DNA of 5,912 bases from a virus (taxonomy: Duplodnaviria; Heunggongvirae; Uroviricota; Caudoviricetes): IMG/VR virus record IMGVR_UViG_2529292720_000008; one strand, 5' to 3'. Positions 1-5,912 of this stretch are shown here, piece by piece (within the stretch, counting starts at the first letter, position 1; every line of letters begins with the position of its first letter). The notes under the pieces were generated by a model, which saw only the letters and a list, made by a program, of their open reading frames with translations, ran no database searches and had not been told where the DNA came from. The translations under genes were made by a program, and so were the position numbers.

Positions 1-963
1 AAAAACCCCCGTTATGAGTTGTGCGCCACAGTACAGGAAGCACTAAAACCCGTTACGGTGAAGGAAGCGATTAACTACTGGCTGGAGGAATACGCGAAGG
101 ATAACCGCAAAGATTACATAAAGCTGGTGCAGCGTATGGATAAGCACATCATTTGCCATATTGGGGCAATTCCCCTTGATAAGTGTGATACAAGGCAGTG
201 GATCGCATGTTTTGACCGCGTACGAAAAAAAGCACCAGTAGCAGCGGGCCATGTCATGCAGACATGCAAACAGGCGCTAAAGTTTTGCCGCAGGCGGCGC
301 TACGCGTTTAGCAACGCCCTGGACGATTTGATCGTTACTGATGTGGGTAAGAGAGCAGAAATCCGCGAGAGAGTGCACAGCAACAGCGAACTAAAAGAAA
401 TTCTACGCGCTATTGATGGTGATGTGTTCGCTCCCTATTACAGTGCGTTAATGCGCTTGTTAATTGTGTTCGGGTGCAGAACGGCAGAGATCAGACTTTC
501 AGAGATCAAAGAATGGGATCTGAAAGAAATGTTGTGGACAGTGCCAAAAGAGCACAGCAAAACGAAGGTCGCCATATTCAGGCCAATACCGGAAAGCATT
601 TTACCGTTCGTCACGCAGCTGGTGGAGCAGAACAGACACACAGGGCTATTACTCGGGGAACTGAAACAGGAAGCCAGTGTGTCGCAATACGGCAGATTCA
701 TGCACAAAAAATTAAACCATCCGCACTGGTCACTACACGATATACGGCGCACGTTTACCACGATGCTGAACGATTTAGGCGTGGATCCGCATATTGTCGA
801 ACAACTCACCGCTCACCAGATGCCAGGGATGCAGCGAGTCTATAACCACTCCCGTTATCTCGATGCGAAACGTAATGCGCTGGACATGTGGACAGAGCGG
901 TTAGAGATACTGGCGGGTACTCACAAAAACGTAACCACACTGCCAATAGCCAGAGAAATATAA
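1..963 (+). CDS. int: Tyrosine recombinase / phage-type integrase, C-terminal portion; 5' end is outside the window (frame is open from position 1)
   Basis: Frame open from nt 1 to stop at 961-963. Translation carries the catalytic-domain hallmarks of tyrosine recombinases: conserved Arg in GCRTAEI, the HDIRRTF His-x-x-Arg box, and the C-terminal VYNHSRY tyrosine region, followed by a P4-type tail (LDAKRNALDMW). The TTG at 19 is only the ORF finder's first start, not the real one. Confidence 0.9.
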   Translation, partial: KNPRYELCATVQEALKPVTVKEAINYWLEEYAKDNRKDYIKLVQRMDKHIICHIGAIPLDKCDTRQWIACFDRVRKKAPVAAGHVMQTCKQALKFCRRRRYAFSNALDDLIVTDVGKRAEIRERVHSNSELKEILRAIDGDVFAPYYSALMRLLIVFGCRTAEIRLSEIKEWDLKEMLWTVPKEHSKTKVAIFRPIPESILPFVTQLVEQNRHTGLLLGELKQEASVSQYGRFMHKKLNHPHWSLHDIRRTFTTMLNDLGVDPHIVEQLTAHQMPGMQRVYNHSRYLDAKRNALDMWTERLEILAGTHKNVTTLPIAREI

Positions 964-1050: not shown

Positions 1051-1330
1051 TTAACATCTGACTGACACCCTAAAAAGTTGATTTTCAGTCGTTTTACTGG
1101 CTTTTTGTACATTGGCGAATCACTCTTAAAAACATGTAAAAAAGGCGTAAAAACAGAATTTTATGCCTTTGCACCACAATGAATTAAAAGAGTTTTTATT
1201 CTCATTACCACACTTCTGTAAAATGACCGCCGCCAGTGTTTGCCATTCCATAAACACCCTGACACAATCCGACGCACCACAACACAATAGGACACCAAAT
1301 AACTCTTTAAGAAATATCAAAGGGGGAATT

Positions 1331-1519
1331 GTGTTAAGCACAGATCGCTTTATACGTGAAAAAGAATGTCAGCAACTTACAGGCCTGAGCCGTTCATGTC
1401 GGTACCGCCTGGAAAAAACCGGACAATTCCCATCACGGCGTAAGCTCGGCGGTCGTTCCGTTGGCTGGTCTTTATCCGAAGTTCTGGCATGGAAGGAAAG
1501 CTGCGAGGCAGTTCACTAA
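1331..1519 (+). CDS. alpA: AlpA-family (Phage_AlpA / MerR-like HTH) transcriptional regulator or excision activator, 62 aa
   Basis: Translation VLSTDRFIREKECQQLTGLSRSCRYRLEKTGQFPSRRKLGGRSVGWSLSEVLAWKE matches the AlpA pattern (TG-x-SR-x-x-Y ... FP ... LG-x-RSVGW ... E-x-x-x-W). GTG start at 1331 has a strong Shine-Dalgarno AAAGGGGGAA at 1319-1328. The in-frame ATG at 1163 lacks an RBS and would add a non-homologous 56-aa extension. Confidence 0.8.
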   Translation: MLSTDRFIREKECQQLTGLSRSCRYRLEKTGQFPSRRKLGGRSVGWSLSEVLAWKESCEAVH

Positions 1520-1525
1520 TCAGGC

Positions 1526-1544
1526 TGGCGGCACACAGCCGCCA
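1526..1544 (+). other. GC-rich stem-loop (TGGCGGC-acaca-GCCGCCA) just after the alpA stop
   Basis: Perfect 7-bp inverted repeat with a 5-nt loop, seen in the sequence. No U-tract follows, so it is not a canonical intrinsic terminator; it may be an RNA processing or stability element, or a protein-binding palindrome. Confidence 0.35.
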
Positions 1545-1571
1545 CCCATCCACTAATACAGAGATCTAACC

Positions 1572-2047
1572 ATGAATACTGGATATTCTCCCGAACAAGG
1601 GCGGGGCTTCGTTCGTCCTGAAAAACAGAATCTGCAAAATTTTGCCGAAATTATTCCGGTTATTTCCGGCCTTACTGGCGGGAGTGAAACCAATATTGTT
1701 AACGCCAGAGCGTTGCAGATGTTTGATGATAAAAAGGGAGTAAATTTAACTTACACCCCTGACGGCAATCAGAATATGAGCATTATCTCTGAGTCAGGTT
1801 TCTACAAACTAATAAAAACAAAAAGCGCCCCGTTGCCGGAGCGCCTTTGTGAACAATTAACCTACTGCGCAAAAAATGAATCTGAGCAGTGGGATTATAT
1901 CAACCGTGTGGCGAAGCGCCACAATTGCCGGATAACAGGCAAAACAAAGGCCACCCGCTACGGTGGCCCCTCGACACAAGCTACACGTTATCCCCAACGC
2001 ATGAGCATCACCAACAATGCCACATTTGCGGCTGGTGGGCAATGTGA
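1572..2047 (+). other. Possible coding region of uncertain status (start of a 470-codon stop-free frame); may be a decayed gene or a frameshifted remnant
   Basis: ATG at 1572 opens a frame whose first ~120 codons look protein-like (including an SESGFYKLI segment that faintly recalls the E-x-G-L-Y-x-L-I core of Bro-N/antirepressor proteins, from memory). There is no in-frame stop until 2984, and the middle of the frame (2050-2580) is Ser/Cys/Arg-rich, antisense-like translation. No boundary can be supported. Confidence 0.2.
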
Positions 2048-2221
2048 TCAGTCAGATTTGGTTCGTTCCAAGGTTTGCAACGAGAGCTTTTTCCTGTGCT
2101 CTTTAAGGAATTTCTCAAGAGCAAAAGCACATGGCGCGAATCTTTCTGATTCATGCTCTATCTTTCTGCGCCGTCTTTTCCGTGCCGGTGATAATGTTTT
2201 GGTCAATTCTTTATCGGTCAT
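2048..2221 (-). CDS. Small basic hypothetical protein (57 aa from the second ATG; the track start at 2236 gives 62 aa)
   Basis: Minus-strand ORF with charged, protein-like composition (MTDKELTKTLSPARKRRRRKIEHESERF...), in contrast to the junk-like plus-frame translation over the same DNA. AGGA lies 7 nt upstream of the second ATG. It sits directly downstream of the leftward RHH-like gene. No family recognised. Confidence 0.25.
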   Translation of the reverse strand: MTDKELTKTLSPARKRRRRKIEHESERFAPCAFALEKFLKEHRKKLSLQTLERTKSD

Positions 2222-2278
2222 TGTGTTGTCCTGCATAGCAATGCGCCGTAATACCTTACACCACGGCGCTGGTGATGG

Positions 2279-2551
2279 TCACTCCTGCTCTTTGGCCTTG
2301 CGACGCTGGAGTTCTTCACGCGCGACGGTGATGAGTTGCCCGATCTCCTCGGCTGCTTTGACTCCGATTTTTTCCACCTGCGCCAGTGCATCGAGCGAAG
2401 AAACCAGGGGATTTTCTCCGCTTCCTTCTGCCTGGCGGCGGGCGATCTCACCGCGAACGGCTGTAATCACGAAAGCGGCTATTGTTTCCCCTTCCGTTTT
2501 CGAATTTTCCATTTCCTCGATTACATCATGGGGGAAGCGGATATTTTTCAT
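2279..2551 (-). CDS. Putative ribbon-helix-helix-like DNA-binding protein, candidate repressor of the divergent rightward operon (90 aa; alternative start at 2584 gives 101 aa)
   Basis: Minus-strand ORF whose N-terminus (MKNIRFPHDVIEEMENSKTEGETIAAFVITAVRGEIARRQ) fits a beta-strand / helix / turn / helix RHH layout, with a helical charged C-terminus. The overlapping plus-frame translation is low-complexity. It is transcribed away from the palindrome-rich region at 2585-2780. The fold call comes from pattern only. Confidence 0.45.
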   Translation of the reverse strand: MKNIRFPHDVIEEMENSKTEGETIAAFVITAVRGEIARRQAEGSGENPLVSSLDALAQVEKIGVKAAEEIGQLITVAREELQRRKAKEQE

Positions 2552-2605
2552 TTGCGATCTGCTGTTGATATTTCCTGTTGCCATCAGAATGTCCGGTTAT
2601 TTTGA

Positions 2606-2709
2606 GGTGTGCATACATTACACCAAAAGGTGTGTAAATAAAACACTTGACACTGTAGCGCACTTAAATTTAATCTGTACACACACCAATGATTGTGGTG
2701 TATGTACAG
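2606..2709. promoter_or_regulatory. Divergent control region: rightward sigma70-like promoter (-35 TTGACA 2647-2652, 16-bp spacer, -10 TTTAAT 2669-2674) flanked by two palindromes built from GGTGTG/CACACC half-sites
   Basis: Consensus -35 hexamer and a 5/6 -10 hexamer at correct spacing. Upstream inverted repeat ACACC-aaaa-GGTGT at 2620-2633. Downstream 14-bp-arm inverted repeat CTGTACACACACCA (2675-2688) / TGGTGTATGTACAG (2696-2709) with one mismatch, overlapping the predicted transcription start. Further GGTGTG copies at 2606 and 2629. Confidence 0.55.
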
Positions 2710-2780
2710 CAAAGCCCCGCAGTGCTGGAACACATGCAGGGCTTCTAACCACCAACGATAGCGAAAGTATCGAGGTAGCT

Positions 2781-2984
2781 ATGAGAAATTATACCAGACA
2801 CCCGCAAGGGCGGGACTCGTACAACCTGAATAAATACATCTGGCGTTTTATCGCCCTGAGCACGGCACAACCGCGCGTGATTACCATTGAGGCCACCAGC
2901 GAACAGGAAGCGCGTCAGCAATCTCCTGATGGCTGCGTGATGGTATTCGCTGCCCGTATTCGCCAGGGGGAACACCATGATTAA
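2781..2984 (+). CDS. Icd-like small protein (host cell division inhibitor Icd-like family, as commonly annotated in P4-like prophages), 67 aa
   Basis: ATG at 2781 preceded by GAGGT at 2772-2776. Translation MRNYTRHPQGRDSYNLNKYIWRFIALSTAQPRVITIEATSEQEARQQSPDGCVMVFAARIRQGE fits my recollection of the Icd-like pattern (W-x-F-x-A-x-S ... SE-x-EAR ... FAAR). First gene downstream of the promoter; the stop overlaps the next start. Confidence 0.55.
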   Translation: MRNYTRHPQGRDSYNLNKYIWRFIALSTAQPRVITIEATSEQEARQQSPDGCVMVFAARIRQGEHHD

Positions 2985-3605: not shown

Positions 3606-3905
3606 ATGAAACAGAAAAATTCTGGCTTTACTGCCAGTGGTCTCCCTCGGCCTGAAATCCGCCCCGGTGATATTTTCCGGGATAACTACGGTGGCACGGT
3701 AACGATTAAAAGCGTGGCGGGGCGGTGCGTTACTTACCGCCGTGATGGGTACGGCTATGACTGCGTGATGCCTGCTTATCAGTTCCGGCGTGATTTTTCA
3801 CTGATACAGGCCACACCACGCAAACAGCCCACCAGCAACGCAAAGGCACGGGCAAATATTCAGAAAATGAAAAACATGATTAACGCATTCAGGGGCAAAA
3901 AATGA
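3606..3905 (+). CDS. Uncharacterised small basic protein, 99 aa, translationally coupled to rep
   Basis: ATG at 3606 with GGAGT upstream; its stop overlaps the rep start (ATGA at 3902-3905). Gly/Arg/Tyr-rich core (GDIFRDNYGGTVTIKSVAGRCVTYRRDGYGYDCVMPAYQFRRDF) suggests a small beta-rich domain. No family recognised. Confidence 0.5.
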   Translation: MKQKNSGFTASGLPRPEIRPGDIFRDNYGGTVTIKSVAGRCVTYRRDGYGYDCVMPAYQFRRDFSLIQATPRKQPTSNAKARANIQKMKNMINAFRGKK

Positions 3906-5317
3906 AACTGGCACCGAACTTAAAAAAACAGCCACACGACAAAATGACCGAAGTCATTATTTTTGCGGGTAGTGATGCCTGGGCGCACGCGAAACAGTGG
4001 CAGGAACAGGACGGGCGACTTGCTGGTGATAACGTCCCGCCTGTATGGCTGGGAGACAGCCAGCTTGACGAACTGGCAGACCTGAAAATTATCGACGATG
4101 GTCGCTATTGTGTCCGGCTGTACAAGGCAGGCCACATCAAGCCGTCAAATATTAATGCTATCGGGCAAAAGCTGGCGGCGGCAGGTGTACGGGATGCGAA
4201 TTATTACCCTGATGGAATGCACAGCCAGAAGCTGGAGAACTGGCACGACTACCTGCAACGGATCCGCGAACAGGCAGAGCGCGGGGAAATACTTACTGAC
4301 GAGCAATACAGCCAGCGAAAAACCACGCTACCAATGAGCATTGGATCTGCAGGGTACGACACACAGCTTGATTATGTCGTTAAGGGCGTGATTCCGGCTA
4401 ATTCATTGTGCAGCACATACGGCGCGAGCGGTTCCTATAAATCGTTCCTCGCGTGTTCCTGGGCGTGTCATGTTGCCACTGGCCGTCACTGGGGAGGCCG
4501 CAGGGTGGCGCATGGTTCGGTGATGTATGTTGTCGGTGAAGGTGGCATTGGTGTCCCCCGCCGTATCAAGGCATGGGAAATCGTTAATGATGAACGGGTG
4601 GAAAATCTGTACCTGGTAAACCGCCCGATTTTTCCGGCAGTCCCGCTTGATGTTGATGAAATGGTCATCGCTTCCCGCCAGGTTGAACGGGAAACGGGTA
4701 AACCGGTACGCATGATTATTCTTGATACGCTGGCGCGTTGCTTTGGCGGTAATGATGAAAATGACGCGCGGGATATGGGGGCGTTTATCCGTGGATGTGA
4801 CGAACTGAAACGCCGCACAGGGGCCACGGTGCTGGTGGTTCACCATTCCGGCAAGGATGAAACAAAGGGGGCGCGTGGTTCCAGTGCATTTCGTGCATCT
4901 CTGGACGCTGAATACCGTATTCGCCGTGAAGGTGCAGACAGTGAAGCCCTGGTTATCTCCTGCACAAAAATGAAGGACGCGGAGGAACTGAAAGAGGCCG
5001 CATACGATTTACGTGTGGTGGAGCTTTTTACCGACACTGACGGGGAGTTAATCACGTCGCTGGTTGTTGTGGATAAGCCGCGCCCACCCGTTGAACTGGA
5101 GCGCATCGAGGAAGCCGGGAACAAGACGGAGAATCATGCCGCGCTATGGGGCTGTATCCGTTCACGCACACAGCGCGGAGATAAATGCACTATTCCGTTG
5201 TTGCGCGATGATATGAAAAAGCTGGGGTATGAGATGAAACACTTCCGGCGCTGGCTGTACAAGCTGGAAGGTGATGGCGTTATTGCTATTGACGGTGATG
5301 ACGTGCGCCCACTGTAA
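3902..5317 (+). CDS. rep: Replication protein: RepA-like / DnaB-like RecA-fold ATPase (AAA_25-type) with an uncharacterised N-terminal ~150-aa domain, 471 aa
   Basis: Walker A GASGSYKS at nt 4421-4444, Walker B-like hydrophobic stretch with Asp (RMIILDTLA, around nt 4709-4735), and the VLVVHHSGKDETKGARGSSA motif typical of RepA-like helicase/ATPase cores. Ends immediately upstream of an iteron cluster. The alternative start at the MTEV Met (nt 3944) cannot be excluded. Confidence 0.85.
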   Translation: MKLAPNLKKQPHDKMTEVIIFAGSDAWAHAKQWQEQDGRLAGDNVPPVWLGDSQLDELADLKIIDDGRYCVRLYKAGHIKPSNINAIGQKLAAAGVRDANYYPDGMHSQKLENWHDYLQRIREQAERGEILTDEQYSQRKTTLPMSIGSAGYDTQLDYVVKGVIPANSLCSTYGASGSYKSFLACSWACHVATGRHWGGRRVAHGSVMYVVGEGGIGVPRRIKAWEIVNDERVENLYLVNRPIFPAVPLDVDEMVIASRQVERETGKPVRMIILDTLARCFGGNDENDARDMGAFIRGCDELKRRTGATVLVVHHSGKDETKGARGSSAFRASLDAEYRIRREGADSEALVISCTKMKDAEELKEAAYDLRVVELFTDTDGELITSLVVVDKPRPPVELERIEEAGNKTENHAALWGCIRSRTQRGDKCTIPLLRDDMKKLGYEMKHFRRWLYKLEGDGVIAIDGDDVRPL

Positions 5318-5518
5318 AAAGTGGGTAGTAAAAGTGGGGAGTGTGGGGAATTTAACAAAATTGAAACGTGATTCCCCACTTTCCCACCTGTATATACCCC
5401 AAAAAGTGGGGAATAAAAAACACATTGAAAAACATCACGTTAGAATCACAAAAAAAAGAAGTGGGGAGACGTTGGGTAATTTCAAAAAGTGGGTAGTAAA
5501 AGTGGGGAGCAGTGAGGA
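5316..5518. repeat. Iteron cluster, putative origin of replication: at least 8 copies of AGTGGGGA-like 8-mers in both orientations, a 26-bp perfect direct repeat (5316-5341 and 5484-5509), and an A-rich tract
   Basis: Read directly: AAAAAGTGGGTAGTAAAAGTGGGGAG occurs twice. Additional GTGGGGA / TCCCCAC copies at 5334-5340, 5342-5349, 5373-5380 (inverted), 5381-5388 (inverted variant), 5405-5412 and 5461-5467. A-rich segment at 5411-5460. Position right after rep fits a rep-ori arrangement. Confidence 0.7.
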
Positions 5519-5770
5519 ATGACCAGAAAAACCAGAGATAAGACAGCGCCAAAATATAAAGCGTTAGACATGACAGAGCACGCCTTAAAGGTGGCAATCA
5601 GAACGATAGACCGCCACGCTGGGGAAGGATACGCGAAAGCACACCCCGAACTGATAAGCGCATTCATGACCACGACGGCGGCAAACTTTGCCACGCTGAC
5701 AGAACGGGAGATTGCCGAAGCGGAACAGGTGACAACCATCAACGTTAAAACTGGAGAGCAGACAGCATGA
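5519..5770 (+). CDS. Hypothetical protein, 83 aa
   Basis: ORF with ATG at 5519 (GGGGAG at 5504-5509 as a possible SD); its stop overlaps the next start (ATGA at 5767-5770). Helical, Ala/Thr-rich translation. No family recognised. Confidence 0.4.
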   Translation: MTRKTRDKTAPKYKALDMTEHALKVAIRTIDRHAGEGYAKAHPELISAFMTTTAANFATLTEREIAEAEQVTTINVKTGEQTA

Positions 5771-5912
5771 CAGCACAGATAGCGGCTTACGGGCGGCTGG
5801 TGGCTGACCCGCAGTTAAAGACCACCAGCAAGGGTACACAAATGACGATGGCTAGTATGGCGGTCCCCCTTCCGTGCAGCCAGGCAGATGACGGAACGGC
5901 GATGATGTGGTT
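5767..5912 (+). CDS. SSB-like OB-fold protein, N-terminal part only (continues beyond the window end)
   Basis: Translation MTAQIAAYGRLVADPQLKTTSKGTQMTMASMAVPLP...DDGTAMMW follows the N-terminal pattern of single-stranded DNA-binding proteins (G-x-L-x-x-DP-E/Q-L-R/K ... G ... A-x-x-AV ... W). Only 48 codons are visible. Confidence 0.35.
   Translation, partial: MTAQIAAYGRLVADPQLKTTSKGTQMTMASMAVPLPCSQADDGTAMMW

Follow-up and report, generated by a model that had tools for sequence, protein, structure and literature searches.

A long open frame in enterobacterial phage satellites that may be selected for its translatability rather than for its product

Open reading frames (ORFs) that act in translational coupling or against transcriptional polarity are already known. 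The immI operon of phages P1 and P7, with the order c4 RNA-icd-ant, is headed by an Icd-type gene, and Biere et al. are said to have found in 1992 that translation of P1 icd prevents premature Rho-dependent termination and permits downstream transcription; similarly, Forti et al. reportedly found in 1999 that translation of the nested kil and eta leader genes of P4 prevents premature Rho-dependent termination. Here we analyze a frame of possibly related function in a stretch of 5,912 nucleotides (nt) recorded as a virus of the Caudoviricetes (IMG/VR record IMGVR_UViG_2529292720_000008; "the window" denotes this whole stretch), which we assign to a phage satellite of the phage-inducible chromosomal island (PICI) type. 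The frame, hereafter the bridge, runs without a stop from behind the regulatory gene alpA, through a cassette of two genes on the opposite strand, to the end of a gene for an Icd-like protein. The P1/P7 immI and P4 leader ORFs are short and gated by antisense RNA, whereas the bridge reaches the previous operon across an opposing cassette, and the Rfam search of the window found no antisense RNA to accompany it.

In Gifsy-1, the nucleotides of orf45 are conserved and its amino acids variable, and its translation is required for expression of the downstream gene (PMC4825925). Like the bridge, orf45 is an upstream ORF (in the order isrK-orf45-anrP), and its stop overlaps the next start. However, it has 45 codons, is sense-only and is controlled by a small RNA, whereas the bridge has 200-600 codons and lies antisense to a protein-coding cassette. 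Antisense "shadow" ORFs resemble the part of the bridge opposite the cassette in that they are in wobble-on-wobble phase and easily open, but they stop with the gene that casts them, whereas the bridge continues through hundreds of non-genic, lineage-specific codons and has its own ribosome-binding site (RBS).

The EcCICFT073-type PICIs of Gram-negative bacteria (Fillol-Salom et al. 2018, PMC6092414) carry, like the window, int, alpA, accessory ant/bro genes, an Icd-like gene, small ORFs, DUF4222, a RepA-type helicase and iterons. The window has the PICI gene order int-alpA-...-replication (pri/rep), with iterons 3' of the replication gene, and because the EcCICFT073 island of CFT073 is ~96% identical over window positions 1302-2309, we regard the window element as a member of this type. 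According to that paper, transcription of Gram-negative PICIs runs rightward, and AlpA activates PalpA as well as a reporter fusion to EcCICFT073 ORF3; the islands are described as unidirectionally transcribed and without a clear repressor, and the portion of the text considered here does not discuss the leftward cassette or a bridging frame. A 2026 survey lists BRO, AntA/B, YlcI/YnfO and Icd simply as accessory genes (PMC13612085), and no description of the long frame or of the leftward cassette was found in the literature on PICI AlpA antitermination, YlcI/YnfO and satellite Icd-like proteins. Given the ORFs of this general kind already on record, the new element would be a family-wide bridge of 200-600 codons antisense to a repressor cassette.

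A frame kept open across a family of satellites

From 1557 up to its TAA at 2982-2984, the + frame contains no stop over 475 codons, with 470 amino acids (aa) from the first ATG at 1572. Only one stop-free run in the window is longer, and the chance of such openness from the base composition of the window alone is P ~1.7e-11, given the frame. An earlier examination of the letters without database searches (the sequence-only reading) had judged this run to be highly improbable and had traced it antisense through the RHH-like gene and then in frame into the Icd-like gene; both statements hold, the second by the coordinates (Table 1). Along its length, the frame consists of an antirepressor gene remnant (1572-1838), a stretch with terminators (1839-2047), a stretch antisense to a 62-aa ORF (orf62) and to a ribbon-helix-helix (RHH) gene (2048-2584), and the Icd-like gene itself (2781-2984). 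The frame is not an assembly error, since four complete RefSeq E. coli genomes match 1.7 kb of this sequence with 100% identity and a fifth does so with 99.9%; strains 90-9280 and ETEC-2264 carry exactly this sequence.

In the identical records, the Prokaryotic Genome Annotation Pipeline (PGAP) presents 1572-2984 as one coding sequence (CDS) for a "host cell division inhibitor Icd-like protein" (WP_001387819.1). Within the 470-aa product, the match to the NCBIfam Icd-like model is confined to residues 422-465, so that the RefSeq name fits the last 14% of the ORF. Moreover, the annotation is inconsistent across RefSeq records L001-L007, with at least four versions: the 470-aa Icd-like CDS; a 172-aa, N-terminally extended Icd overlapping the RHH gene; a short Icd plus YlcI/YnfO; a pseudogene labelled "BRO-N, incomplete" or "hypothetical, incomplete"; or nothing between alpA and the RHH gene.

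Relatives were retrieved by search with the Icd-like peptide alone, so that the sample is not biased towards long ORFs; a genome scan with an RHH alignment had given no confirmed loci, and the Icd alignment was used instead. A set of 21 loci covered E. coli, E. ruysiae, Klebsiella, Enterobacter, Rahnella, Rosenbergiella, Acerihabitans, Superficieibacter and Intestinirhabdus. Over the 900 nt that precede the Icd domain, 14 of the 21 show 0-1 stops in the Icd frame, compared to 11-22 stops in the other + frames. After 80 metagenome loci were added (103 loci in total), an extension of at least 130 codons was present in 85 loci, from more than eight genera, and there were 68 distinct complete frames of 200-608 codons; five of the 103 reach the contig end without a stop. 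An independent gene-caller library gave a similar picture: among 150 representatives of Icd-like clusters, the Icd domain, which lies at the extreme C-terminus, is preceded by at least 100 aa in 96 and by at least 200 aa in 68.

The remaining arrangements show how the frame may end. In seven of the 103 loci (the L003 type) it stops 20 nt before the Icd ATG, in L012 it likewise ends just before this ATG, in one locus (L028) it is interrupted, and in five more distant loci it lies in another phase. Frames of 267-409 codons in three Pectobacterium loci begin at the stop codon that ends the preceding ant/bro gene, run across Icd in the +1 phase and join the gene that follows it. These arrangements imply that bridging is the common feature and that fusion to Icd is incidental.

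Lineages have exchanged the DNA beneath the bridge, which often cannot be aligned from one to another, with an orf62 module in the window and direct-repeat modules in L010, L019, L022 and L020. In these four loci (from Klebsiella, Enterobacter and Intestinirhabdus), the bridge contains short direct repeats, at 2400-2650 in L010 and at 2200-2600 in L020, which read as repeated "NPSLRG" peptides; the repeat units of L020 read "ALQ(H/Y)T..KS.S..HYP".

When the parts without a known gene match are pooled over the 68 distinct sequences, the bridge frame contains no stop in 11,659 codons, compared to 772 and 799 stops in the other frames. About 2,488 of these codons are mutually unalignable and still stop-free, with a nominal P of ~1e-75, which overstates the independence of a sample that consists mostly of E. 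coli-type relatives and is best read as far beyond chance. In these unannotated parts, 120 of 121 distinct length differences between homologous anchors are divisible by three, a count that is conditioned on the frame being open and serves as supporting evidence only. A raw count of gaps in blastn high-scoring segment pairs was dropped because spurious 1-nt gaps appeared even within real genes. Altogether, the open frame appears to be a conserved, selected feature of the whole family, and no accident of the window copy.

In the window, the start codon of the frame is supplied by the antirepressor remnant. Residues 6-49 (1587-1718) are 77% identical to the N-terminus of the full-length, 283-aa AntA/AntB-type protein of L004, whose gene fills the same slot, and residues 42-90 (1695-1838) are 69% identical to the second BRO-N half of an intact 192-aa gene in L007. 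A three-way alignment places the crossovers at ~1712-1722 and ~1812-1822, and positions 1814-1870 match the L004 DNA directly past the ant stop codon, hairpin included. By these alignments, the 5' part is a decayed chimeric antirepressor that has lost its C-terminus and stop, in line with the decayed gene suspected in the sequence-only reading, which had proposed an alignment of homologous elements; intact ant/bro versions fill the slot in L004, L007 and L013-L017. Compared with the BRO-N and AntA-AntB genes of satellites and prophages, the remnant matches parts of both and completes neither domain: Pfam Bro-N (PF02498) scores 16.8 bits against a cut-off of 25.6 and covers profile positions 36-85 of 96, PHROG anti-repressor matches are restricted to aa 44-90, only residues 6-49 align to the L004 protein, and Pfam AntA has no match in the remnant. 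Intact BRO-N and Ant proteins searched against the window in all frames match solely in the same frame, at 1587-1838. Homology thus covers only ~89 codons, fewer than the ~120 that had seemed protein-like, and the frameshifted homology envisaged for 1572-2280 did not emerge; for the + product of 1851-2278, Pfam, PHROGs and NCBIfam gave no match. In L004, the bridge starts at a GGAGG..ATG overlapping the ant stop, and the remnant joins in frame ~10 codons into the bridge, in the phase seen in L004. Recombination took away the bridge's own start along with most of the antirepressor gene, and the in-frame fusion of the Ant/BRO-N remnant to the bridge explains the 470-codon ORF; ATG 1572 of the remnant would now have to feed the bridge.

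Initiation signals and an unconstrained product

The starts of the bridge carry recognizable translation signals. The first in-frame ATG or GTG forms a mean duplex of -5.15 kcal/mol with the anti-Shine-Dalgarno sequence, compared to -1.19 kcal/mol for internal in-frame ATG and GTG codons (33 vs 262 contexts; p=2e-8). This first start usually abuts or overlaps the upstream stop, in forms such as GGAGG..ATGA, GGAGG..GTGA and TAAaGGGGAG..ATG; examples of the junction are GGAGGctattgtATGA in Klebsiella, GGAGGtgctgaGTGA in Enterobacter, GGAGGcccaccATGacTAA in L016 and TAAaGGGGAGca..ATG in several E. coli types.

The encoded amino acids, by comparison, show no sign of purifying selection. Substitution rates at codon positions 1-3 of the bridge frame in unannotated parts are 0.083, 0.094 and 0.085, so that the ratio of position 3 to the mean of positions 1 and 2 is 0.96, against 2.62 in the Icd-like gene; the 470-aa product as a whole is thus not preserved as a protein. 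Opposite the RHH gene the ratio rises to 3.92, and because the least variable + position pairs with the second codon position of RHH, the RHH gene is the constrained partner there. Pfam found no domain in eight long products from other genera, the composition of the extension is random-like (Ser 11%, Cys 3.5%, Glu and Asp ~3% each), and what products from different genera have in common is limited to blocks conserved at the DNA level: the "KTKA" terminator, the "AGGQ" block, the RHH antisense stretch and the Icd leader. The amino acids of the bridge are hence unconstrained, and the bridge does not seem to encode a single functional protein. The sequence-only reading, which held that the frame cannot be a single gene, was right in this sense; as a translated unit, however, the bridge is probably one ORF.

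Conserved ORF integrity and initiation signals without conserved amino acids are the pattern of a translated leader or coupling ORF. The absence of stops and frameshifts in one frame, combined with an RBS and the lack of amino-acid constraint, points to selection for translation itself. We consider it rather probable that the bridge is a translated ORF and that the act of translation, not the product, is what selection sees.

What translation of the bridge might achieve

The probable role of the bridge is to link rightward expression driven by alpA with the replication genes. The leftward RHH/orf62 cassette is the only gap in the rightward gene chain, which the bridge would fill; alpA is the upstream gene of the rightward operon, and the + genes 3' of Icd overlap stop to start. 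The Icd-like gene had been credited with a promoter and an RBS of its own. The RBS is indeed good (GAGG, 5 nt from ATG 2781), but the promoter scan placed no sigma-70-like site before Icd, its + strand sites lying solely at 1240-1288, upstream of alpA. Ribosomes would follow the polymerase from the alpA promoter across the antisense cassette, and their transit would shield the RNA from Rho-dependent polarity over ~1 kb that would otherwise be untranslated. In addition, the ribosomes might unfold the hairpins of the terminators and the leader or assist the polymerase at roadblocks, and the bridge would deliver them to Icd and the overlapping replication genes downstream. We tentatively propose, with somewhat less than even confidence, that enterobacterial PICI-type satellites contain a "ribosome bridge" of 200-600 codons that has no protein function and is selected only for translatability, carrying coupled transcription-translation from the helper-induced alpA operon, antisense through the RHH repressor cassette and the terminators, into the Icd-replication operon. 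Our confidence in the specific anti-Rho purpose is lower than in translation of the bridge as such.

Several observations weigh against this proposal, in addition to the limits on the nominal P and on the anchor counts given above. ATG 1572 has a weak Shine-Dalgarno (SD) sequence (-2.9 kcal/mol). Continuity of the bridge is not absolute, being broken in ~8 loci (the L003 type and L028), and some of the "unannotated" sequence may consist of unrecognized gene remnants or RHH variants. A C>G bias like that of Rho utilization (rut) sites is absent from the pooled unannotated + strand (C/G 0.97) and mild locally in the window. Transcription of the + strand might be terminated in part at the hairpin of 1821-1848. 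Finally, AlpA of Pseudomonas is a processive antiterminator (PMC7969949, PMC9371919), and if PICI AlpA acts in the same way, shielding from Rho by ribosomes would be less needed.

The bridge could also be translated for ends other than protection from Rho, namely, to open the leader and the Icd RBS for coupling, or to let convergent transcription interfere with the RHH repressor transcript as a switch. We consider this unlikely, although it agrees with several features of the locus: the leader (2670-2785) folds as three hairpins (z = -3.7), the last of which partly pairs with the Icd SD, the bridge is convergent to the RHH gene, and the coupling of orf45 to anrP provides a precedent (PMC4825925). 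For coupling to Icd, however, a short upstream ORF would suffice, and 200-600 codons extending as far as the previous gene would not be needed.

Still less likely, in our view, is a genuine long protein, in which the bridge would be a fast-evolving, possibly disordered but functional N-terminal extension of Icd. Gene callers and PGAP predict such proteins widely, the initiation signals in the frame are real, and the Icd domain is usually fused at the C-terminus. Nevertheless, the substitution ratio of 0.96, the lack of domains and the random-like composition are difficult to reconcile with a functional extension, as is the fact that the antisense RHH gene determines much of the sequence. Across genera, protein-level conservation is absent from every part of the extension, and the frame is fused to a different gene in Pectobacterium and to none in the L003-type loci and L012.

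Very improbable is an accident, in which a decayed gene without a stop, antisense codon bias and chance produced a frame that is not under selection. The 5' remnant did lose its stop, and the antisense stretches are cheaply kept open because of their phase: the wobble positions of the bridge frame coincide with those of both minus-strand genes, so that a + frame stop opposite these genes requires a codon ending in T or C before a Tyr, His or Gln codon (NNT-CAN, NNT-TAN, NNC-TAN). When the minus-strand proteins were resampled with synonymous codons, the + frame stayed open with P=0.18 for RHH and 0.90 for orf62 (jointly ~0.16). Two further observations speak for a translated bridge: the wobble-on-wobble phase to RHH recurs in all 68 distinct sequences, and none of the 40 distinct RHH alleles puts a stop into the antisense frame, although the resampling P is mostly 0.1-0.4 per allele. 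Antisense codon bias, one of the explanations offered in the sequence-only reading, thus contributes (P ~0.18 x 0.90) but is not the whole cause, given that the frame is conserved family-wide. The remnant and Icd add no cost to openness, yet ~149 codons outside any gene remain in the window, with P ~4e-4. Furthermore, this frame remains free of stops in different genera whose sequence contexts are unrelated, with SD-plus-start signals, and the 2,488 mutually unalignable codons show that the loci are not recent copies of one sequence. Decay and codon bias therefore account for the 5' end and for part of the openness, whereas the dominant cause seems to be the conserved, apparently translated bridge frame.

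A sequencing or assembly indel, or a structured non-coding RNA across 1572-2278, both raised in the sequence-only reading, can be dismissed as scarcely credible, given the identity of four complete genomes, the lack of any Rfam family in 1572-2278 at E<=1, and the frame-specific absence of stops, which is not a property of RNA genes.

If the translated bridge is confirmed, it would be an unusually clear natural case of an ORF kept for translation itself, over hundreds of codons and antisense to a real gene, and would bear on how "functional but non-coding-like" ORFs are recognized; protein databases contain many spurious-looking long "Icd-like" proteins. It would also mean that the islands possess a hidden divergent repressor module, which bears on the induction of Gram-negative PICIs, seen in the literature as a single rightward programme without a clear repressor, and that Rho polarity and transcription-translation coupling are design constraints on mobile elements.

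The opposing cassette and the rest of the island

Table 1. Features of the window (positions counted from its first letter)
Feature	Position	Strand	Evidence and remarks
Integrase gene	19-963		First gene of the window
alpA, AlpA-family regulator	1331-1519	+	Pfam Phage_AlpA, 66 bits; PGAP: helix-turn-helix regulator
Bridge, long stop-free frame	1557-2984	+	ATG 1572, TAA 2982-2984
Chimeric antirepressor remnant	1572-1838	+	tblastn, blastn blocks, alignment; supplies the bridge start codon
Terminator-like element, GC-rich hairpin then U-tract	1821-1848	-	-20.5 kcal/mol on the minus strand, -13.7 kcal/mol on the plus strand
Intrinsic terminator of the RHH-orf62 unit	1946-1971	-	-18.5 kcal/mol, U-tract
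Conserved 48-nt block	2005-2052		Reads "AGGQ" in the + frame; downstream of orf62
orf62 (62-aa ORF)	2048-2236	-	PHROG 21027, E=1.9e-14
YlcI/YnfO ribbon-helix-helix gene, 101 aa	2279-2584	-	NCBIfam NF041551, 64.2 bits (cut-off 30); PHROG 6522, 1e-48
35-bp inverted repeat	2675-2709		Between the RHH gene and Icd
Icd-like gene, 67 aa	2781-2984	+	NCBIfam NF033153, 70.4 bits (48-position domain)
DUF4222	3' of the Icd-like gene		Preceded by small overlapping + ORFs
AAA_25/RepA-type helicase	3902-5317		
Six copies of a 13-nt repeat	5316-5509		Core AAAAGTGGGKAG; adjoining the RepA-type helicase gene
ssb start	5768-5912		Right edge of the window

The minus-strand cassette comprises the RHH gene, orf62 and their terminator. 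The hairpin at 1821-1848, whose U-tract is poor on the + strand, has its homologue in L004 directly 3' of the intact ant gene; in the + frame, the terminator at 1946-1971 reads "KTKA", the block that recurs in many relatives. The block at 2005-2052 is 93-100% conserved; many E. coli genomes contain it on its own, and some have up to five copies, sometimes without flanks. The true start of orf62 is probably M6 (2221, SD AGGA). Its substitution rates by minus-strand codon position increase in the order position 2, position 1, position 3, which suggests a small gene under weak constraint; PGAP labels it as a hypothetical protein in L002 and L004.

The gene upstream of orf62 belongs to the YlcI/YnfO family, and PGAP names its homologues likewise. 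It occurs in at least 20 allelic types, with a variable N-terminal, DNA-reading part and an optional C-terminal half (59-67 vs 101 aa). The inverted repeat at 2675-2709 may be a candidate operator or the first leader hairpin. The RHH gene and this repeat could be candidates for the "missing" repressor and operator of the Gram-negative PICIs.

At the 3' end of the bridge, the Icd-like gene scores above the cut-off of its domain model. Searched with Rfam at E<=1, the window contains neither C4 (RF01695) nor isrK (RF01394), and hence does not resemble a C4/isrK operon; its sole weak match is symR-like, on the minus strand at 2708-2780, with 25 bits against the required 61. In 14 relatives, the same search found no RNA family in the bridge except isrK and C4 in L011, from E. 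albertii. There, the two RNA genes (2726-2914) replace the RHH cassette directly upstream of the Icd-like gene in a P1 immI-like arrangement, which also shares isrK with the Gifsy-1 system, and a stop-free + frame of 219 codons still crosses both.

The repeats at 5316-5509, within which a 26-nt unit recurs exactly, 168 nt apart, look like candidate iterons of the island's replication origin; the PICI paper places iterons 3' of pri-rep in Gram-negative PICIs (PMC6092414). A PADLOC run on the small proteins returned nothing meaningful. The ssb gene is annotated as a frameshifted pseudogene in the identical RefSeq genome (L001 7468-7701), and the window breaks off ahead of any packaging genes. 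The Rfam int-alpA RNA motif (RF02996) is present at the equivalent site in L004 and L008 and not in the window. Between int and alpA, the window carries at least three, possibly five, copies of GA(A/C)ACAACG with 10-nt spacing (988-1045), which may be candidate binding sites of Int or AlpA.

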